Below are positions 1 to 26,100 of a stretch of 64,000 nt of DNA, piece by piece. Source of the DNA: an uncultured archaeon (GTDB lineage Archaea; Asgardarchaeota; Thorarchaeia; Thorarchaeales; Thorarchaeaceae). The position numbers were made by a program, and so were the translations under genes. The notes beneath the pieces are model-generated. The model saw only the letters and a list, made by a program, of their open reading frames with translations, did no database searches and was not told where the DNA came from. The DNA lies in NCBI GenBank assembly GCA_964458565.1, contig CAYWJO010000002.1, forward strand, positions 1-64,000, written 5' to 3'. The first letter of the stretch is position 1; each line of letters begins with the position of its first letter.

Positions 1-184
1 GACTATTGGTATTGGTATTTGGATACTAATTTCTTGCAATGATTGTTAATGTTTGATTTCCTTTCTGGGACTTCTTGTGGGGTTGGATCTAGAATTGATT
101 ATTCGTGATTCTCGTTAATATCGAGGTTTTAGAAATTATGTCGTATTATTTGCCATCTCTAAGAAATTGGCAATAACATGGATG

Positions 185-907
185 TCAGGTTTGTTCCTTT
201 CTAATGCTGACCCATGTCAGAATCAAGAGTACACCAATGAATCCAGCTATTCCAAGCCCAGTGACAATAATAAACAGGTCATCCGTCGAGTCTTTAGGAG
301 TGGTTGTTGTTAGAAGAGTTGAAGTTGTAGTTTCACTAACTGAGGTTGTTGGCGGAATTGTGGGGGTGGTTGAAACAGATGAAAGTATGGTGATCAGTGC
401 ATAATGAATATCAGGTCCTATAACAACTAACTTCCACAACCCAGCTTCTGGGTTTCTAAAATAATGACTGGTTGTATCTCTAGTCATTAAGTAATTCTCT
501 TCATTTATCACTAGGATCAACCACTCATCGCATCCAAACGAATTATTTTCTGAAATCAGAGTTAGTCCAACTGCTTCAATCTCTGAGTGAACGTCTAGAT
601 ACCATCTATCGGGTTGATATGTAGTGGCAACTCCATAAACCAAAGTATCGTTTGACAAGTATCCCCTTTCATTAAAAGTTGCATTACCAAAGTATGTTAA
701 ATAGGGAAAATAAGGCACATATGGTGGATGAGATGAACATGTTGTAGGAATAGTATATTCCAGTAATGAGCTGCCAAATAGAATAACATCTTTGGAACTT
801 GTTTCTTCTGGTTGAGCTTGTGCTGAAACTTGGAAATAATTGTTGTGTAAATAGAATGATGTAATAATAATGCAAATAACAAACATCAAACTTACTATCC
901 TTTTCAT
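185..907 (-). CDS. Secreted/surface protein with Thr-rich linker and C-terminal membrane anchor
   Basis: N-terminal signal-like MKRIVSLMFVICIII; TTPTIPPTTSVSETTTST linker; C-terminal hydrophobic helix followed by RK. Confidence 0.75.
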   Translation of the reverse strand: MKRIVSLMFVICIIITSFYLHNNYFQVSAQAQPEETSSKDVILFGSSLLEYTIPTTCSSHPPYVPYFPYLTYFGNATFNERGYLSNDTLVYGVATTYQPDRWYLDVHSEIEAVGLTLISENNSFGCDEWLILVINEENYLMTRDTTSHYFRNPEAGLWKLVVIGPDIHYALITILSSVSTTPTIPPTTSVSETTTSTLLTTTTPKDSTDDLFIIVTGLGIAGFIGVLLILTWVSIRKEQT

Positions 908-3404: not shown

Positions 3405-4232
3405 CTATATAGAAATATGACGAGACCACGACTTCTTCTTTCCCCTCTGCGCGTCCATTTCCGCAAGTATCTTGACTGCCTCATTTCCACAGTCAATTGC
3501 ATCCTGTTCCCCGCGAACTGCAAACTCATCTCTGACTCTGTTTGCATATACCGCACATACTGCACCAGATCGGAATCCGTAGATGTTCGCAAGTGTGAAT
3601 ACCGTAGCTGCTTCCATCTCAAAATTAGCTACATTCGCACGCTGCAGCTCTGTGATCAGACTCTTACTCCCTTCCGTTTCATACCCTCCAAATCCAGGTC
3701 TCGATTGACCAAGATAGAAGCTATCAGTCGATGCTGAGATTCCAAGATGGTAATTCGCTCCTAAAGATTCTGCAGCCTCTATTAAGGCAAGTATCACTTC
3801 ATGTGACGCAAGAGCAGGATATTCAATCCGAACATACTGCTTACTCGTTCCCTCAAGACGAACTGCACCTGTTGATATTATTAAATCACCAATCTCGATT
3901 TCTTCTTTCAAAGCCGCACAAGATCCCACACGAATGAAATTCTCTGCTCCTACATTAGCTAGCTCCTCGATTGCAATAGCTGTACCTGGTCCTCCAATCC
4001 CTGTGGAACAGGCTGAAATGGGTACTCCCTTGTAGGTCCCTGTGTGTGTCACGTACTGTCTGTGTGAACCGACTTCTTCAAATGAATCCCATTTCGAACT
4101 TATCTTTTCAACGCGACCGGGGTCTCCAGGTATAATAACTGTAGATGCGACCTTTCCTCTCTCAACCTCAATATGATACTGCTTCCTGTCAGGTGTTTCT
4201 GGTCTTGCAGCAGAAACAATGTCTTTAGTCAT
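3405..4232 (-). CDS. udp: Uridine/nucleoside phosphorylase
   Basis: PGDPGRV, STGIGGP, IRVGSC, DSFYLGQ and NFEMEAA motifs. Confidence 0.9.
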   Translation of the reverse strand: MTKDIVSAARPETPDRKQYHIEVERGKVASTVIIPGDPGRVEKISSKWDSFEEVGSHRQYVTHTGTYKGVPISACSTGIGGPGTAIAIEELANVGAENFIRVGSCAALKEEIEIGDLIISTGAVRLEGTSKQYVRIEYPALASHEVILALIEAAESLGANYHLGISASTDSFYLGQSRPGFGGYETEGSKSLITELQRANVANFEMEAATVFTLANIYGFRSGAVCAVYANRVRDEFAVRGEQDAIDCGNEAVKILAEMDAQRGKKKSWSRHISI

Positions 4233-4445
4233 AGGCTATCACCTCTTATTCTATTACACACCCTCCCTTTTTCACTTTCGTACGAGGACAATTATGTTTG
4301 GATAATCTTCTTATAACACAACTATTATATGATGGTAAAATAGTTGCAAGGCCGAAACCTCGTTAGATTTTCACTTCCACAAAAATCAAAAGGGGTTTGT
4401 TAGAGTGCTGCAGCGCTCAATGATCCTATAGAGGAGCGAGTTAGA

Positions 4446-5594
4446 ATGGTTGAAACTACCATCAGCGTAATCAAGGCCGATATCGGTTCACTTGCAGGTC
4501 ACGTAATAGTGCCTGATTTTATTATGGAATTTGCCCGTAAGAAGATGAAAGAGGGTGTTGAGAAGAAGATCATAAACGACTTTTATGTCACACATGCAGG
4601 AGATGATCTTGAACTCATCATGACTCACTTTAAGGGCGAGAATAACGAGGAAGTTCACAAATTAGCATTTGACACCTTCATGGAAGGTACAAAGATTGCC
4701 CGTGAGAAGAAAATCTATGCCGCGGGGCAGGACATTTTATCCGACACCTTCAGTGGAAATGTGAAAGGAATGGGTCCTGGTTCTGCAGAAATGACTTTTG
4801 AAGAACGTAAATCTGAGCCTATTGTAGTCTTTATGGCGGACAAGACTGAGCCTGGAGCTTACAATCTACCAATGTTTAGAATATACGCAGATCCGTTTTG
4901 CACCGCAGGTCTTGTAATCGATCCCAATCTTCATGATGGATTTATCTTTGTCATTCAGGACATCCTAAAAGAGATACCTTGCTATCTAGAGATGAGTTGT
5001 CCTGAAGAGATGTATGACCTTCTTGCCTTAATTGGAAGCACAGGTCGTTATGTGATAAAGAAAGTCTACCGAAAGGATGGTATGATTACAGGAGTGGTCA
5101 GTACAGACAAGCTACATAAAATCGCAGGGAAATACATTGGAAAAGATGACCCTGTAGCGATTGTCAGGGCACACTCTGGTCTTCCTGCAATGGGAGAAGT
5201 TCTTGAAGCTTTCACAATACCTCATATGGTTTCTGGATGGATGCGTGGTTCTCATGCAGGTCCTCTGTTACCTGTTGCCCTAAAGGACTCTAAATGCACT
5301 AGATTTGATGGCCCTCCAAGAGTAATTGCTCTTGGATTCCAGGTTTCCAACGGAATGCTCGTTGGTCCAGTTGACTTGTTTGATGATGTGGCATTTGACA
5401 TTACCAGACAGAAGGGTCTAGAGGCTATGGAGTACATGCGTCGTCATGGACCTTTCATGCCACACCGACTTCATACAGAGGACATGGAATACACAACTTT
5501 GCCTTTGGTCTTGGAAAAATGTGCAAATCGATTTATTGAAGGCGAAATCGATATCGCGAAGAAAATTAAAGACACCTCAGAGTCTGCTGAGTAG
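4446..5594 (+). CDS. fbp: Bifunctional fructose-1,6-bisphosphate aldolase/phosphatase (class V FBPase)
   Basis: SVIKADIGS, GDDLELIMTH, YIGKDDPV, GWMRGSH and RFDGPPRV signatures. Confidence 0.97.
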   Translation: MVETTISVIKADIGSLAGHVIVPDFIMEFARKKMKEGVEKKIINDFYVTHAGDDLELIMTHFKGENNEEVHKLAFDTFMEGTKIAREKKIYAAGQDILSDTFSGNVKGMGPGSAEMTFEERKSEPIVVFMADKTEPGAYNLPMFRIYADPFCTAGLVIDPNLHDGFIFVIQDILKEIPCYLEMSCPEEMYDLLALIGSTGRYVIKKVYRKDGMITGVVSTDKLHKIAGKYIGKDDPVAIVRAHSGLPAMGEVLEAFTIPHMVSGWMRGSHAGPLLPVALKDSKCTRFDGPPRVIALGFQVSNGMLVGPVDLFDDVAFDITRQKGLEAMEYMRRHGPFMPHRLHTEDMEYTTLPLVLEKCANRFIEGEIDIAKKIKDTSESAE

Positions 5595-18592: not shown

Positions 18593-18928
18593 ATGTCTCC
18601 ATTTATAACACGCGTTCAAGTATGGTTCAATAGTGAAGGTGCTTCACCTTCAGAGATAATTGAGAAGCTAGTAGAACTTGGATTCACTCCTGTTCGAGGA
18701 GCTTATGATTTTGTGTATGAACATGACTCAGAAGAGATTGGAGAAGATGACTTATCCAATGCAATTCTGGACATCGCAAATGCATTACATGCAGCTCTCT
18801 CTGGTTTTAAGGTTCTTTATACACTGGACACACACGAAGGTGGAGATTTTATTCCACTCGAGGATATTGATGCAGAATTAGAGGCGACCCGAAAGGAACT
18901 TCAAGATATCGAGAACGAGAATGATTGA
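18593..18928 (+). CDS. Conserved archaeal hypothetical protein
   Basis: FNSEGASPSEI...LGF...GAYDFVY pattern; GAGGT SD. Confidence 0.7.
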   Translation: MSPFITRVQVWFNSEGASPSEIIEKLVELGFTPVRGAYDFVYEHDSEEIGEDDLSNAILDIANALHAALSGFKVLYTLDTHEGGDFIPLEDIDAELEATRKELQDIENEND

Positions 18929-18970: not shown

Positions 18971-20734
18971 CTAATCTGTTGTTACTTCAGGTTCGCGGCG
19001 TTCGTATTCGCCTTCACCTTTGATAGTGATATTAATTCGTTTCTTATCACCAGGATTCATTCTTGTCCATTTCCAAATGAGATTCATTCCATCCTCTACG
19101 GTACTTAGAGATGGCTCTTCCTCCATTGGATCGGTGGATATATACTGAAACTTAGATGGTATCCAATCAGTGACAACCACGTTTTCAACAGTGACTTCAC
19201 CCTTATTCTCCGCTACAATCATAACGATATATTCACCTGGACTATCACCCTTGTTAATCGCTTTCTTGACTGCGATTCTACGTTTCTTATAGATAATCCC
19301 TATTTTGTGTCCATCTGGACTGCTTCCTGTTTCTGTGGGATGTCCGGGGGGATAGATGTTAGCTCTACATTTAATTGGTGATGGGTATTCCTTTTCAGGT
19401 CTACTTCTCCATGCCATGATTGCATAGTTTATTTTTATACTCTCACCTGGCTTGAGCACACCAACTGTTTCTTTCAAATCCTTCAATACTATGGTGATAT
19501 GATGTGGTTTCTCTGGATCTTGGTCCTCTGGGTCCATAGTGAATTCTTCTCCTCTAACCCAGATATTCACATGTTCTTTCTTTGGAGGCATTACATCATC
19601 TGGTAGGTTATCCTCAATTACAATTTCATTCAATGCTGCTGATCCAATATTTGTGACTTCTATGGTGACCTCAACAGGCGTCTTATCGGAACTAGATACA
19701 TTTGGTGGGTCAAATTCCTTTGAATAATTGATTCGATATACGGGGATTTGTAGTGGGGTCTTTGTAATTGTACCCAAAACTCTCTTCGTGACCTTTCTCA
19801 TTGGTGTATAGATAATTTCCTGAGTACATTTTGGTGGTGATTTGCTCTCGACATTGAATGATGCGGTCCAATCAGAGTCTGGAGCCATTTCCTTAGATGG
19901 AGCTTTATCAATCATTATCTGCTTTGATCCGCCGTCTTCTGGAGTAAAATAGACTTCAGCCTTGTCCAATCTTATCATCAAGTCACTTTCATTTGAACAC
20001 TCAAGAATACACTCCCACTGATTCGGTTGAGATTCAGCTGTTTCTATTCCAGTCAGAAATTCAGTTAAGGCAGTCATATCTGGTTTTAGTGAAGATCTCT
20101 GTTGGTCGTCGCCCCTGTAAGAAACAACTAGCTCTCCTGCATTCTTTGAATCAACATCCTCAGCATTGCCAACTGCAGTGATTTTGAGAACTGAATCTTC
20201 TTCGGGGTAGATTACAAATTCCTTCCAGACTATCTGTCTAGTTCCCTCGTCATAAGTTGCAGTTCCTGATGTAGTACTCTCAATCTCTACATTTGAAAGT
20301 TCAGGAGGTATTGTCTTGTTCAGTATAATATTATCTAGTTGGCCATTCGTTGTGTTCTTAACACGTATTGTGATTCTAACAGGATTCCTATTTCCGAAGG
20401 AATATGCCCAATGTGGCTCTTCTGAAGATTCTTCATAACAGGTATCGAAAATCTCTGTTAGTTCCATGATTGGTTCTGATATTGTGACAGAGTAACCATG
20501 ATCCCATATTCCACCTGCTTCAATCTCACCTGCTGAAAGAGTATCTTCTGGAATGTCCGTTCTTGATTGAGACCCATCTAGTAGAACACGTACGTTCCAT
20601 ATTCTACACCTTTCTGATGTATTATGCACACTCAGTACACCTGAAACGTCAACATGATCTATTCTATTGTCTTCTTTTATCACTGCTTTTTCGGTTTCTT
20701 CTAGGTCGATGATTACCATCTTATTTTCGGTCAA
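18971..20734 (-). CDS. Cytoplasmic beta-sandwich protein: mu-homology-like N-terminal region plus Ig-like/DUF11-type repeats
   Basis: No signal peptide or TM helix; repeated VTIEVTNIG...IEDNLP / VAENKG...VTDWIP units; probable TTG start at 20734 after GGTGAG (ORF open from 20797). Confidence 0.65.
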   Translation of the reverse strand: MTENKMVIIDLEETEKAVIKEDNRIDHVDVSGVLSVHNTSERCRIWNVRVLLDGSQSRTDIPEDTLSAGEIEAGGIWDHGYSVTISEPIMELTEIFDTCYEESSEEPHWAYSFGNRNPVRITIRVKNTTNGQLDNIILNKTIPPELSNVEIESTTSGTATYDEGTRQIVWKEFVIYPEEDSVLKITAVGNAEDVDSKNAGELVVSYRGDDQQRSSLKPDMTALTEFLTGIETAESQPNQWECILECSNESDLMIRLDKAEVYFTPEDGGSKQIMIDKAPSKEMAPDSDWTASFNVESKSPPKCTQEIIYTPMRKVTKRVLGTITKTPLQIPVYRINYSKEFDPPNVSSSDKTPVEVTIEVTNIGSAALNEIVIEDNLPDDVMPPKKEHVNIWVRGEEFTMDPEDQDPEKPHHITIVLKDLKETVGVLKPGESIKINYAIMAWRSRPEKEYPSPIKCRANIYPPGHPTETGSSPDGHKIGIIYKKRRIAVKKAINKGDSPGEYIVMIVAENKGEVTVENVVVTDWIPSKFQYISTDPMEEEPSLSTVEDGMNLIWKWTRMNPGDKKRINITIKGEGEYERREPEVTTD

Positions 20735-20799
20735 CTGACTCACCAACTCATATTCTATGATTGTGTATTCCCGTAGAATGGTCTTTACACGGAGCAATA

Positions 20800-21495
20800 T
20801 TAGGTAATTGTGTGTCTAAACTCATTTCCAGCTGCCCACTGAATTTCCATAACTTGGCCTTTTTCTAAGATAACTGGCAATGTACTTTGACTAAATTGGT
20901 CTATATATTTGGCAAATTTGATTCCTTGTTCTTTGTCTGTTATACGAGAGGGTATTGCAATCCTAGGTCCAGCATCGATACAGAGACTGACAGCATCTTT
21001 CACATCGAACACCTCGCCACCTGAAACAGGTGTGATTAACACATCTGATTCGATTTTTCCGAATGGTCCCCTAACAGCCGTATCTCCTAAGAATGATACC
21101 TTCATTCCTCCCATCTCAATATAGAGTCCCATGTTCTCTACCCGATCACCTGTATCTGGATTTCTACGATGGAGGGCATAAGGGGTTAATTTGAGCCCTG
21201 GAATTTCGTATACAATTTCTGAACGCAAGACATGTAACAACCATGGTTTTCCACCGTCGGCTTTCACTCTCTCAATGGTTTCTTCATTACCGAGAATCCA
21301 TGCTTTTGCATTCGCTGCAATTTCAACAGCATTTCCAACAGCGTCGTCCAGCTTATGAGTCGCAGCTATCACTCTAACACCGTAATTATCAGGCACTAGA
21401 GTTTTCCCTCTCCATTTTCCTGGATTCACTAAGAGCGATGTGTCATTAGATTCGAAGGCGAATGTCGTTTTACCAAAGTGTGTAATTTTGAGCAA
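20800..21495 (-). CDS. Metallo-beta-lactamase-fold protein (UPF0173-like), degenerate metal motif
   Basis: KITHFG...LLVNP, FLGDT and LITPVSG motifs; THKLDD in place of THxHxDH. Confidence 0.75.
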   Translation of the reverse strand: MLKITHFGKTTFAFESNDTSLLVNPGKWRGKTLVPDNYGVRVIAATHKLDDAVGNAVEIAANAKAWILGNEETIERVKADGGKPWLLHVLRSEIVYEIPGLKLTPYALHRRNPDTGDRVENMGLYIEMGGMKVSFLGDTAVRGPFGKIESDVLITPVSGGEVFDVKDAVSLCIDAGPRIAIPSRITDKEQGIKFAKYIDQFSQSTLPVILEKGQVMEIQWAAGNEFRHTIT

Positions 21496-21707
21496 TAGAC
21501 CACATCCTAATATTCCGTTTAGTCCCATATCTAGGAATACCAGCGGTATGCTATCGAGTGTTTTTGTTTCTTAAAAAGAAATTGCCCATATGCTGTTAAA
21601 ATTCACCTTTTTTGATACAAAGAAGCAATCTCCGGGTTTCCGAGTGCTATCTTTTTATGATATTCTCAAGACATAAGGATAGAGATTCTCAATAAAGCAT
21701 CAGAGGA

Positions 21708-23018
21708 ATGAAGAGGGGTCTTATGCTCGAAAAGATACTTACTGAAAAATTCCGCGAATTACTGAAATTAGTGTTCACAGATATTCAAAACCAACAGGAT
21801 CGCCGAGATGAAGAAGAATTTGCCAAAGATGAATTGAGAATCAAAGAGAAACTTCTAGATGCTGTAGATACGTATCCCTCTGATGTCGTATTGGATGAGG
21901 ATTTCGGTATTGCTGCTGTAGATGGGTCTGGAACAGATACGCTCATGTTGTTGGATGATATTAGAGTTCACCTTCTTAGTACGGCTTCGATAGTGATTGA
22001 TACAAACACAAAGGCGGAGAATCTATTCTCTCCTCTTGATCGCGAAACATTGGAGAGTTACCTAGGAAGTCAACCCCATATCGATGCACACTGGCATTCT
22101 GGTGTACGTGGGGATGCGAAAAACAAACTTGCAGACTCTCTGGCTAATATCTATCCTGAGAAGGACCTCGTGTCTATCATATTGCCCTTCTTCAGAGATG
22201 TAACCGAAGACCGGATTTCTGATTTCACTAAACTAACTGAAAGCGAATTCGCAAAGTATGCAGTCAAATTGGATGCGATGGATGAGCTCATTTCTAGGGA
22301 GCAAATCCTTACGAATCCAGTTGTTCATGATGAGTTGAGGAAGGTATCTGAATATGCAGCAGCTAGAGATATTATCACCAGTGGACTTCGTCCAAAATAT
22401 CTCTTGTTAGATGGTGCGATGTCAATCTTCATTCATTTCTCAAGGCAATATCCCTCTATGCCAAGTGGTTTCATGTTGCGTGAGCTCTGCTCTTTGGCAC
22501 GTAATGAAGAGATAATTTTGTGTGCAGTAAGTAAAACACACACAATTCCATTTGCTCATCGTATTGCAAAAATGGCTCAGGACAAATTCGGATTAGGGAC
22601 GAAATGGTTCTGTCATCTCCCTAGTAAGGATGATCCTGAGGGCGGTTTACATATCTATGAGGACCGTACGTATATTCCTCCGAGATTGGCTGTCCCATAT
22701 CTCTTCAGTTTCTCGCGAGATAATCGTCCATCAAGGATTGATTTTGACAGAGTCTGGTGGTTGGAAAATGTATTTGTTCCAGGAGACCCTGTTACAACAA
22801 GACAGAACGAAAAGGCGTTGTTTAGAGACCTCGAGTTTATGTCACGAGATGCTCGATGGTATGGATATCCTGTCGCGTTAGCTCTGGCACATGAAGCGTG
22901 TAAATTAAGCTACGAGGATCTCAGGATATCAAAAGAGATTGCAATGGATGTTAGAAGTCAGCTTGGTCTCGATCCAAGACGCGCAGACTCTGCAAGGAGT
23001 GACTATAATCTAGACTAG
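21708..23018 (+). CDS. nurA: NurA 5'-3' nuclease
   Basis: AAVDGS, LLLDGA, AVSK and GYPVALALAHEAC motifs; operon context. Confidence 0.88.
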   Translation: MKRGLMLEKILTEKFRELLKLVFTDIQNQQDRRDEEEFAKDELRIKEKLLDAVDTYPSDVVLDEDFGIAAVDGSGTDTLMLLDDIRVHLLSTASIVIDTNTKAENLFSPLDRETLESYLGSQPHIDAHWHSGVRGDAKNKLADSLANIYPEKDLVSIILPFFRDVTEDRISDFTKLTESEFAKYAVKLDAMDELISREQILTNPVVHDELRKVSEYAAARDIITSGLRPKYLLLDGAMSIFIHFSRQYPSMPSGFMLRELCSLARNEEIILCAVSKTHTIPFAHRIAKMAQDKFGLGTKWFCHLPSKDDPEGGLHIYEDRTYIPPRLAVPYLFSFSRDNRPSRIDFDRVWWLENVFVPGDPVTTRQNEKALFRDLEFMSRDARWYGYPVALALAHEACKLSYEDLRISKEIAMDVRSQLGLDPRRADSARSDYNLD

Positions 23019-23029
23019 AGTGAACAAAC

Positions 23030-24781
23030 ATGGTGTTGGATAAGGATAATCTGGGAGAATTATTTGGTAAAGTTGGGATTGGAAATCAGAACATGCTAGG
23101 CATCATGGGAAGTAACCGTGATATCAGCGTTGGGGAGATTTTCATGATTTATTCCCAAAGAGACGGTCATGAACGTGTGTTCTTTTTCCGTGTGCTAGGA
23201 CTTGAGAATTACCTACGTCAGGTAGATGACATGTCGCGCGTCGCAGGTACCTTGATGGTAGAAGGTGATGCGTATCTCTCAGGTATTGAACGGAATATGC
23301 TTCTCTCTGTCAATGGCAAGATGCTTGGTTATGCTGAAGAAATAGATGGAGAATGGAAATTCCGCTCCCCTAGGAGAATGCCTGACCATTTAGCAGACGT
23401 ATATCGGCCAAAACCCGGAGTATCAGACGAAAACGTTTGTGCGATGTTATGTACACAAACTGATGGTGAGGTCTATGTTGGTGATTTACAAATTGGTGAA
23501 GCCACACTTGATGTTCCGGTAATGATACCAGCAAAGTTCCTTCCGATGCACGTTGGCATTTTTGGATCAACTGGCGCAGGTAAAAGTAATCTTATGATGG
23601 TCCTCATTAAATCAATAATCGATACAAATCTTGACAATATTGGTAGTTCTGATACGCGAATATCGGGATTCTGTATCGATCCTCATGATGAGTTTGCTAA
23701 GGGTGTCGACAAATTTGGAATTCAGCACATAATCGAATCGATGGACTCTGATACACGGAAGGAAGTCATTGGTGATTTCTATTATCTGACAACCCATCCT
23801 ACAGCAACTCCAAGAGAGATTCAGAGATATGCTCGAGGGATTCGGATTAACTATCAAGAAATTCAGCCGAGGGACTTGTATTCAATCATGGAATTCACAA
23901 GCCAGATGGAATCGTTCATCGATGGAATTTACGCTAGCGCACAGGAGGACTGGATTTCTGAAATTCTTGATATGACTGAAGATCCCGATGGTACTCCAAA
24001 AGGCACACTAAGAGCTGTACAGAGACGATTGAGATTTCTTGAGCGATCCGTGATATTTGAAAGAAGTGGTTCTTCAGTACTTGATGACATTTTCATCGCA
24101 ATGGAAACTGGACGTATCCTTGTTGTAAATACCAGTCTCATGAGTGATATGGAGCAATTCTTACTGACTACTGTAGTCACACGCACAGTGTCAGATATGC
24201 GCAGAGCAATGAAGAGCAGTGGGACTTTAGGTGATTTTGACAGGCAAGGTCAGATGAGGTTGCCCCGCCCTTTCTTCAATAGAGTCAAGGCAAAAGCGAG
24301 AGGATTTTATGGAAAGAACGGTACAGATGACACCAGCGAGGTTCGTGATCCAAGAGATCTTCCTGTAATCCAGATAACAGTGGAAGAGGCACCCTCAATA
24401 CTCAATCCAGCTTTGATGCGCGGACAGTCAGTATTCAAGGATATTTCTCGTCAAGGCCGTAAGTTCAATATTGGTCTACTTGTTGTGAGTCAACAAGTAA
24501 GTGTCCTAGATAATGTAATCTTGAGTCAGATGAACACTGAGGTCAATCTTAGGCTCGGAAATGAGAGAGAGATTCGTGCATGTATTGAAAATGCCAGTGT
24601 CAATATAACTGGGTTCGAAAACGAGTTTCGAGTCATGTCCCGTGGAGAGGCATTATTAACAGCGTCATATAGAGAGATGCCAATACCTGTTCTTATTCCC
24701 CTCTTTGATGTCATCTTCAACCGCGATAAGGCGAAATATAAGTCTGTCAAAGGCAAGAAGAGTGAAAAGCACATCCTCTGA
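23030..24781 (+). CDS. herA: HerA bipolar helicase/ATPase
   Basis: HAS-barrel N-terminus; HVGIFGSTGAGKS; IDPHDEF; VEEAP; RQGRKF; VSQQ. Confidence 0.92.
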   Translation: MVLDKDNLGELFGKVGIGNQNMLGIMGSNRDISVGEIFMIYSQRDGHERVFFFRVLGLENYLRQVDDMSRVAGTLMVEGDAYLSGIERNMLLSVNGKMLGYAEEIDGEWKFRSPRRMPDHLADVYRPKPGVSDENVCAMLCTQTDGEVYVGDLQIGEATLDVPVMIPAKFLPMHVGIFGSTGAGKSNLMMVLIKSIIDTNLDNIGSSDTRISGFCIDPHDEFAKGVDKFGIQHIIESMDSDTRKEVIGDFYYLTTHPTATPREIQRYARGIRINYQEIQPRDLYSIMEFTSQMESFIDGIYASAQEDWISEILDMTEDPDGTPKGTLRAVQRRLRFLERSVIFERSGSSVLDDIFIAMETGRILVVNTSLMSDMEQFLLTTVVTRTVSDMRRAMKSSGTLGDFDRQGQMRLPRPFFNRVKAKARGFYGKNGTDDTSEVRDPRDLPVIQITVEEAPSILNPALMRGQSVFKDISRQGRKFNIGLLVVSQQVSVLDNVILSQMNTEVNLRLGNEREIRACIENASVNITGFENEFRVMSRGEALLTASYREMPIPVLIPLFDVIFNRDKAKYKSVKGKKSEKHIL

Positions 24782-24792
24782 GGTATCATGTA

Positions 24793-26100
24793 ATGACTGT
24801 TCGAATAGCTCACATCTCTGATACACATCTTGGGGCTAGACCTCGAGATGGTGTCAAACATAATATCTGGGGAGTAGAGATGAGAGCGCGTCTTCTTGAG
24901 AACGACTTCTACGTGCGTTTCGCTGAACTCTTTGATATGATTGCTGCTCTAGATCCTCCTGTTGACCTCGTTGTGCACAGCGGTGACCTTTACGATTCTC
25001 CCTGGGAAAACAATCCGACTCAACCTCCAGTAATGGCACAGACAACGGCATTATCGGTCATGAAGAACTTCATCGAAAAAACTGGGATACCCGTCCTCAT
25101 AATAGAAGGAAATCATGGTCTTTACCGGCTGTTAGAAGTCTCACTTCTTGAAAGCCTGATGATGGCAATTCCTGGACTTGCTGTTGCTACGCAGCAAGAT
25201 CTCAAACGTGCACTGGCAACCTTGGAACCTCTAGTAGTCGAGTTCGATAATCTGGATGTCTATTGTTTCCCATTTATAGACCACTCTGTTCTGGAATCTG
25301 CTGGATTACTAAGTGACTTCAATGATTGGATCCGTAATTCCCAGAAACCGAAATCTAAGAGACCGTCTATTGCGGTAGCACATGGCATGGATATTGACCA
25401 ATCCCTCTATACTGCAATATTTGACCTTGATTATGATTATGTCGCTCTTGGCCATGACCATCATCAGCATAAACACAACAACAAAGCGTGGTATGCTGGG
25501 TCTCCTGAGAGATGGAGATTTGATGAAATTCGTCATGAAAAGGGATATCTACTAGTCGAAATTAAAGAAGGGGAATTACCAAAGGTAACGCCTCAGATTA
25601 TTGAATTTGCTCGTCCTGTGTTCAACGAAGGGATTGTTTTAGCCGAAGATGACACTGTGGACTCTGTAAGTGAAAAAATACAATCATGGATGAACGACCA
25701 AGGTCTTGTTACTGATTTTGATCCGGAAACTGCCGCTCGTATCAGATTTGTAATCGAAGGAAACTCAAGAAGCGTTGGTCCACTTGACTTGCGACTTGCA
25801 CTTGAAGCCCTTAGGATGAAACTGCTCTCTCAAGATTCCGATTATAATATCTCTCAGCTCGTCTGGGTTATCAAGCAATCCCAACAAGAATTTGATTCAC
25901 AGGCCTATCCCGAAATTGAATCAGAATATCTAATTGAGGATCCCGAAACCGATTTCAAGGAATATTTAGAATCCGTGAGTATCGACGAACGCTACGATGT
26001 TTCTGACCTTACAAAGATTGCCGTAAAAGCTCTTAACATAGCTGTCGAAGGCGGCGAAAAAATGACTTTAGAATCTTTAACGGAGGCTGAACGTGAGTGA
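24793..26100 (+). CDS. mre11: Mre11/SbcD nuclease
   Basis: HISDTHLG, HSGDLYD, EGNH, AHG, ALGHDH and YAGSPE phosphoesterase motifs. Confidence 0.92.
   Translation: MTVRIAHISDTHLGARPRDGVKHNIWGVEMRARLLENDFYVRFAELFDMIAALDPPVDLVVHSGDLYDSPWENNPTQPPVMAQTTALSVMKNFIEKTGIPVLIIEGNHGLYRLLEVSLLESLMMAIPGLAVATQQDLKRALATLEPLVVEFDNLDVYCFPFIDHSVLESAGLLSDFNDWIRNSQKPKSKRPSIAVAHGMDIDQSLYTAIFDLDYDYVALGHDHHQHKHNNKAWYAGSPERWRFDEIRHEKGYLLVEIKEGELPKVTPQIIEFARPVFNEGIVLAEDDTVDSVSEKIQSWMNDQGLVTDFDPETAARIRFVIEGNSRSVGPLDLRLALEALRMKLLSQDSDYNISQLVWVIKQSQQEFDSQAYPEIESEYLIEDPETDFKEYLESVSIDERYDVSDLTKIAVKALNIAVEGGEKMTLESLTEAERE

Follow-up and report, generated by a model that had tools for sequence, protein, structure and literature searches.

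We describe here a minus-strand gene at positions 18971 to 20719 of a 64-kb window (the whole stretch analysed, 64,000 nucleotides from a contig of an uncultured Thorarchaeaceae archaeon), encoding a 582-residue protein whose residues 1-322 are predicted to adopt the fold of a mu-homology domain (MHD) and are followed by two DUF11-type domains. In clathrin adaptors, COPI and endocytic pioneer proteins, MHDs serve to recognize cargo and partners. We propose that the protein would be the orthologue, in Thorarchaeia, of a family of soluble and acidic cytoplasmic proteins found across Asgard archaea, that its N-terminal module possesses the MHD fold, and that this module is related to eukaryotic MHDs. 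Leaving function aside, we assign a probability of about 0.6 to these three propositions jointly. The fold itself is very probably genuine, and common descent with the eukaryotic domains is favoured with considerably less assurance.

The fold assignment derives from two AlphaFold2 models. The full-length protein was modelled on 31 close homologues (predicted local distance difference test, pLDDT, 88.1), and residues 1-335 were modelled on 78 diverse sequences without templates, with a pLDDT of 97.3 and a predicted template modelling score (pTM) of 0.87. Both alignments led to identical secondary structure and to the same structural matches. The pTM value argues that residues 1-330 constitute one rigid, compact unit, rather than the beads-on-a-string array of DUF11 domains that an initial annotation of this stretch had named as the contrary outcome. 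Foldseek returned TM-scores of 0.57-0.66 against the MHDs of mu3A, mu2, and delta-COP. After re-alignment of the Foldseek candidate chains with VIA, all 50 of the top 50 entries were MHDs, the best being mu2 (5wrk_A; Z 19.0, root-mean-square deviation (rmsd) 2.7 Å, 220/245 residues), where residues 1..322 of the model correspond to mu2 residues 172..435. A Foldseek-independent search of 48,161 PDB representative chains likewise placed MHDs at ranks 1 to 10, with Z-scores of 14.8-17.5 and 208-225 residues aligned in sequence order, while the first non-MHD fold followed at Z 11.8 with 136 residues aligned. The MHDs recovered in this second search comprised those of mu4 (Z 17.5), mu2 (17.4), mu3A (17.3), delta-COP (16.4), SGIP1 (16.4), mu1 (16.0), Syp1 (14.9), and yeast delta-COP (14.8). 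The rmsd to MHDs, among them those of the AP-1 to AP-4 mu subunits, delta-COP, SGIP1, and Syp1, amounts to ~2.6-3.4 Å over the 208-225 residues.

The order of the strands points in the same direction. Many unrelated single-sandwich targets (among them 8gsy_B, 1ayo_B, and 9ifr_A) aligned with ~115-122 residues over model positions ~82..329 while skipping 111-205, and strand 85-92 was repeatedly grouped with the 208-329 sandwich in matches to unrelated single-domain targets. These alignments indicate that strands 82-108 and 208-329 belong to one sandwich into which residues 111-205 are inserted. The predicted topology is thus the discontinuous, two-subdomain arrangement of MHDs, in which subdomain A is interrupted by subdomain B. 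This feature, which had been singled out for comparison by AlphaFold and Foldseek with the MHDs of AP2 mu2, delta-COP, and muniscins, was present in the model, and the matches include the MHDs of mu2, mu3, mu4, delta-COP, and muniscins (Z 17-19). For mu2 and mu4, Z lies at 17.5-19.0 with 209-225 residues aligned. Like the MHDs of the AP-1 to AP-4 mu subunits, COPI delta, and the muniscins (SGIP1/FCHo, Syp1), the module is predicted to be a banana-shaped, all-beta unit with subdomain B lying inside subdomain A.

According to the models, the N-terminal part of subdomain A covers residues 1-104 (20408..20719, minus strand), the VIA alignment starting at the very first residue. It holds the first hairpin (residues 2-33) and the near-invariant residues E8, G27, N33, W41, E89, and D92 of the family alignment, and its first-strand motif 'hhDhxE' (D5, E8) may resemble the 'LDVxE' of mu subunits. 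The inserted subdomain B (residues 105-207; 20099..20407, minus strand) is a DUF11-type sandwich and is the sole part with sequence similarity to mu-adaptins. The C-terminal part of subdomain A, delimited by the VIA ranges at residues 208-330 (19730..20098, minus strand), would pack back against strands 82-108 and contains the invariant residues E229, W235, N243, W284, and P296. Subdomain A as a whole is ~70-100 residues larger than in mu2, the 208-330 part alone being ~70 residues larger. The initial annotation had placed a possible MHD in the N-terminal ~220 residues, of which the fold is borne out by the models and the extent is not, as ~322 residues are involved. The segment that it took for the first hairpin lies at residues 2-29, in agreement with the models, and the one that it assigned to subdomain B (LDNIILNKTIP...) lies at residues 128-165 and aligns with AP-3 mu. 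Its third segment (ELVVSY...SSL) had been read as late strands and was misplaced, since residues 196-211 form the end of subdomain B.

We were also interested in how far this resemblance extends to the sequence level. A profile built from 36 diverse family members and searched against PDB sequences retrieved exclusively mu-adaptins as top matches (AP-3 mu, E 1.9e-4; AP-1 and AP-2 mu, E 0.006-0.02), and these matches always fell on query positions 109-217. The two C-terminal DUF11 domains had no mu-adaptin match in this search, and subdomain B alone matched. Eighteen of the 36 members match the Pfam profile PF00928 (Adap_comp_sub; 259 positions, gathering cut-off 31.6 bits) with a best E-value of 4.8e-10, and the relative P0167 reaches 34.4 bits, above the cut-off. 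In two paralogues, weak PF00928 alignments start as early as profile positions 6-12 and span positions 6-234. Querying PDB sequences with the single protein by phmmer produced no match, nor did residues 1-104 alone match any Pfam or PDB sequence. Identity to eukaryotic MHDs is only 11-16%, and the likeness of subdomain A to these domains is one of predicted structure only.

The DUF11 content of the protein is more readily recognized. The whole protein matches PF01345 (DUF11) in two C-terminal stretches (E 6e-16, 59.2 bits, cut-off 24.6) and TIGR01451 with 44.1 bits (cut-off 24; E 1.5e-11; best stretch residues 501-529). The first C-terminal domain, a DUF11-type immunoglobulin-like (Ig-like) domain in the model, comprises residues 331-470 (19310..19729, minus strand; DUF11 E 0.0066 for this piece alone) and carries loops of lower pLDDT at 380-410. 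The second comprises residues 471-582 (18974..19309, minus strand; PF01345 E 9.5e-8 for this piece alone) and contains the TIGR01451 stretch, and the two domains match each other by hhalign with 97.0%. That Ig-like domains follow the MHD had been proposed before. Their DUF11 character is upheld by these matches, and the suggested resemblance to adaptin appendages is not supported by the sequence profiles: residues 508-579 show a weak and insignificant profile match to the gamma1-adaptin ear (E 0.026), and AP3B1_C was found in three of the 36 members (best E 4e-4). The protein thus shares with DUF11/TIGR01451 proteins C-terminal domains that exceed the Pfam and NCBIfam cut-offs, along with a subdomain B whose homology to them emerges from profile-profile comparison. 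In contrast to typical DUF11 proteins, which are secreted tandem arrays, the protein is predicted to be cytoplasmic and to carry one DUF11-type unit inside another sandwich.

Several observations weigh against the assignment of an MHD and are best considered together with the strongest competing explanation, namely that the protein is an ordinary cytoplasmic DUF11-array protein in a non-adaptor role, whose likeness to MHDs reflects generic beta-sandwich packing or a very old Ig-like ancestry. The PF00928 match of the protein itself (residues 109-180 on profile positions 122-194) scores 23.4 bits and stays below the gathering cut-off. Only subdomain B resembles eukaryotic MHDs in sequence, as profiles of residues 1-104 and 208-330 retrieved no MHD from PDB sequences at E <= 10. 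Subdomain B on its own matches PF00928 and DUF11 about equally (24.0 vs 23.4 bits), and it is matched by hhalign to the protein's own DUF11 domains with 97.4% (E 1.4e-11) and 95.1%, a similarity equal to that between these two domains (97.0%). In paralogues, the residues equivalent to subdomain B even exceed the DUF11 cut-off. A giant relative of 3026 residues with 24 DUF11 repeats (P0148) matches PF00928 with an E-value of 2e-86, at profile positions ~128-208. Moreover, language-model features (ESM Atlas) associate residues 1-330 solely with DUF11 proteins of archaea, mu2 offers no counterpart for ~100 of the 322 residues, the immediate gene context (ArcS/RaSEA, HerA/Mre11, and a metallo-beta-lactamase (MBL)-fold gene) lacks trafficking genes, and the MHD-like fold is a prediction rather than a solved structure.

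Since DUF11 arrays pass the cut-off as well, the PF00928 match must be regarded as unspecific, and 'mu-adaptin domain' calls in prokaryotes made from Pfam alone can be DUF11 cross-matches. The results for subdomain B, together with the null profiles of subdomain A, further imply that the sequence link to eukaryotic MHDs is solely the DUF11-like sandwich. Nevertheless, two features speak against a pure cross-match: mu-adaptins match subdomain B and not the other two DUF11 domains, and subdomain B occupies the correct topological position. In addition, ten different MHD families can be superposed on the complete 322-residue module without a break in sequence order (rmsd ~2.7-3.4 Å), well ahead of the next-best fold, and the pTM value speaks for one rigid unit. 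We therefore consider a plain DUF11 array improbable, though it is the most serious of the competitors. As a separate observation, a DUF11 array of 1482 residues from a metagenome (P0214) matches PF00928 with E 3e-18, and the matches of P0214 and of P0148, likewise a metagenome protein, score far in excess of the cut-off and all lie at profile positions ~120-208.

Another concern is that AlphaFold might have arranged the three sandwiches in an MHD shape learned in training merely because one of them resembles subdomain B of mu. The predictor was trained on many MHD entries, the sequence similarity lies in one subdomain, and an experimental structure is lacking. However, the close and the diverse alignments agreed in secondary structure and matches, the pLDDT is 97 throughout with templates unused, and strand 85-92 was joined to the 208-329 sandwich by unrelated single-domain targets, so that we rate such an artefact as very unlikely. 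Least probable of all is an exported or envelope protein that leaves the cell by non-classical secretion like most DUF11 proteins, for although DUF11/TIGR01451 repeats usually mark a surface protein and the giant relatives P0148 and P0231 resemble surface arrays (P0231 with a PEP-CTERM motif), the 582-residue protein has no signal peptide, transmembrane segment or anchor, its acidic N-terminus is kept in 29/29 aligned family members from several classes, and its gene is single-copy in its own genome, housekeeping-like and of conserved synteny.

The gene itself is well founded. In the open reading frame (ORF) list of the 64-kb window, the minus-strand frame runs from stop to stop over 18971-20797, the stop codon of the gene occupying 18971-18973. 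The ATG at 20719 is likely the start codon, as the database protein P0003, with 100% identity, begins there. A TTG at 20734, which would add five residues, is a possible alternative in view of the orthologues of 593-596 residues and of an 'ExKxV' just upstream that is conserved among them. The neighbouring genes, archaeosine synthase ArcS/RaSEA among them, mark the source as an archaeon. More than 200 close homologues share 61-77% identity with the protein, every one annotated as Thorarchaeota, and Thorarchaeota proteins of equal length and conserved synteny share 58-77%. Residues 1-300, searched against 1.84 billion representative proteins, yielded 139 clusters at the 50% identity level, which together with the close homologues places the reality of the ORF far beyond chance. 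The isoelectric point (pI) is 4.74 for the whole protein and 4.48 for residues 1-322, in keeping with an acidic, hydrophilic protein, and the maximum Kyte-Doolittle mean over 19 residues is 1.03; the earlier description of a soluble protein without a signal peptide thus holds. A metal site at the CxxxC motif (C237/C241) was considered and dropped, the second cysteine not being conserved outside Thorarchaeia.

Members of this family have been catalogued before. In their survey of Asgard genomes, Eme et al. (2023; Nature 618:992, PMC10307638; Supplementary section 4.3.1) reported Adap_comp_sub in most Asgard phyla with a sparse distribution and never fused to the longin domain Clat_adaptor_s. 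Their Table S3 lists the Thorarchaeia orthologues Thorarchaeota_B59_G1, Thor_24, and GBS33 as PF00928 candidates, besides relatives from Jord-, Hermod-, Hel-, and Lokiarchaeia, which vindicates the caution of the initial annotation that related domains might already have been reported. The diagnostic family motifs IDLEETEK and TALTEFLTGIETAE are present in the Thorarchaeia entries of that table, and judged by sequence, the 582-residue protein belongs to this Adap_comp_sub candidate family of eukaryotic signature proteins (ESPs). The Loki- and Helarchaeial entries of the table that have an N-terminal extension before the MHD-like module also contain a highly acidic or low-complexity linker. While the assignments of Eme et al. 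(2023) are Pfam matches, the present analysis rests on a fold prediction, a count across genomes, and the recognition of the DUF11 cross-reaction. Our main-text literature search gave no match linking Asgard archaea to the mu homology domain or Adap_comp_sub, the MHD is not discussed in structure-based ESP surveys or in a study of Asgard Arf GTPases, and the literature searched mentions neither that subdomain B is of DUF11 origin nor how widespread the family really is.

The family proved to be near-universal in the phylum rather than sparse. Its N-terminal module was detected in 326 of 400 Asgard genomes (the weakest matches, with E 1e-5 to 1e-17, may be DUF11-only). Among high-quality genomes 75 of 90 carry it, and at the genus level it is represented in 74 of 85. 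Members that bear a name come from Asgard lineages without exception (Thor, Jord, Loki, Ran, Borr). Some families possess two to five paralogues. Among the 139 clusters, the module stands either at the N-terminus of proteins of 580-720 residues or internally in longer ones. Many paralogues from Loki- and Helarchaeales (P0157-P0200) carry an N-terminal extension of 100-170 residues before the MHD-like module, which has no Pfam match, and neither longin (PF01217) nor any other known domain was detected in ten such extended paralogues. In the 582-residue protein, PF01217 had no match and the predicted MHD begins at residue 1. A PF01217 profile search of its own genome was also negative, yet is uninformative, as the control matched nowhere. 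Unlike the 582-residue protein, P0205 / P0262 from Candidatus Borrarchaeum (1322 residues) combines DUF11 and an MHD-like, PF00928-matching part with a NACHT/NPHP3_N NTPase.

Directly upstream of the MHD gene, at a distance of 80 nt from its start, lies a minus-strand gene for an MBL-fold protein of 242 residues (20800..21528; Lactamase_B_3, Pfam E 2.4e-16). The two genes adjoin in 64 of 75 Thorarchaeota loci. Within Thorarchaeia this is uninformative, because the whole block of helicase, ArcS, RaSEA, orf111, MHD, MBL, orf436, HerA, and Mre11 genes is syntenic. The MBL-fold gene also adjoins the MHD gene in five of 20 distant loci, belonging to two Jordarchaeia families and a sister family of the same order, on the same strand with gaps of 72-147 nt, and with an identity of the MHD proteins of only 32-46%. 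In the Jordarchaeia loci, no other neighbour known from Thorarchaeia was detected, and the same-order locus L119 retains orf436, HerA, and Mre11. The partner gene pointed out initially is therefore real, encodes an MBL fold and is adjacent in a second class as well, the evidence being one of adjacency. The Thorarchaeial MBL-fold proteins no longer show an intact HxHxDH metal motif, the corresponding residues being 'THKLDDA' here and 'TVDQEES' in the family of the same order, whereas the Jordarchaeia orthologues at the compared loci L106, L107, L108, and L125 keep it (SHEHKDH, THSHPDH, THAHLDH, SHEHRDH), and the Thorarchaeial protein may be a pseudoenzyme. The 80-nt gap between the MBL stop codon and the MHD start codon (20720-20799) contains the A/T-rich stretch 'ATAGAATAT' ~30 nt upstream of the ATG, possibly the TATA box of a leaderless archaeal transcript; if so, the two genes need not form one operon.

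Other neighbours are noted for completeness. An ORF of 436 residues (21708-23018, plus strand) has no Pfam or NCBIfam match and lies directly upstream of HerA (23030-24781) and Mre11 (24793-26100), an association conserved throughout Thorarchaeia; judged by position, it might encode a NurA-like partner of the HerA-Mre11 repair cluster. On the other side, an ORF of 111 residues (18593-18928, plus strand) is convergent with the MHD gene, matches no family and recurs in 66 of 75 Thorarchaeota loci with 55-73% identity. At a distance of 3-5 kb, the MHD gene has actin-family genes (PF00022, E 1e-132) as neighbours in Hermodarchaeia-like loci and in one further family (L110:12012-13148, L112:3423-4454, L118:1175-2191 and 3669-4688, L123:12255-14412), a proximity that may be due to chance or residual synteny rather than to a functional link. 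A PolB-PCC pair recurs near the MHD gene in Hermod- and Jordarchaeia.

Given the preferred assignment, residues 1-322 would form an MHD in which the DUF11-type sandwich (105-207) is inserted in an enlarged subdomain A (1-104 and 208-322). The most probable role of the protein would then be that of a scaffold for protein-protein interactions like the stand-alone MHDs of muniscins or stonins, binding short peptide motifs or partner proteins along its sheet edges, with the DUF11 pair as a spacer or additional binding surface and the MBL-fold neighbour as a candidate partner. We advance a motif-binding adaptor function of this kind tentatively, at less than even odds. AP mu and delta subunits carry an N-terminal longin domain and muniscins an F-BAR domain, whereas the 582-residue protein has neither and, in contrast to eukaryotic MHD proteins, continues with two DUF11 domains. 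Since mu and delta are anchored through their longin domain, this protein without one is presumably no subunit of an AP/COPI-like tetramer. Direct binding of acidic lipids, as in mu2, also seems unlikely, since the MHD part is acidic (pI ~4.5), where the eukaryotic MHD used for comparison displays a basic lipid-binding patch. It is further conceivable, although we regard it as rather doubtful, that the eukaryotic MHD is of Asgard origin and arose when a DUF11-type sandwich was inserted into a beta-sandwich of a cytoplasmic multi-Ig protein. The present family would then be a surviving pre-adaptor form that functions in the absence of a longin anchor, with an MBL-fold protein as its partner in Thor- and Jordarchaeia.

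As Asgard PF00928 candidates have already been published, the gene stands as a confirmed example and not as a discovery. What is added here is a fold test that predicts the full discontinuous MHD with very high confidence, the recognition of subdomain B as DUF11-type, the wide occurrence of the family, and its MBL-fold neighbour. That a DUF11-like subdomain is the only link in sequence is a warning on ESP calls made from Pfam only, and at the same time suggests a concrete origin for the MHD. An archaeal forerunner of the MHD, if true, would bear on the origin of vesicle coats.

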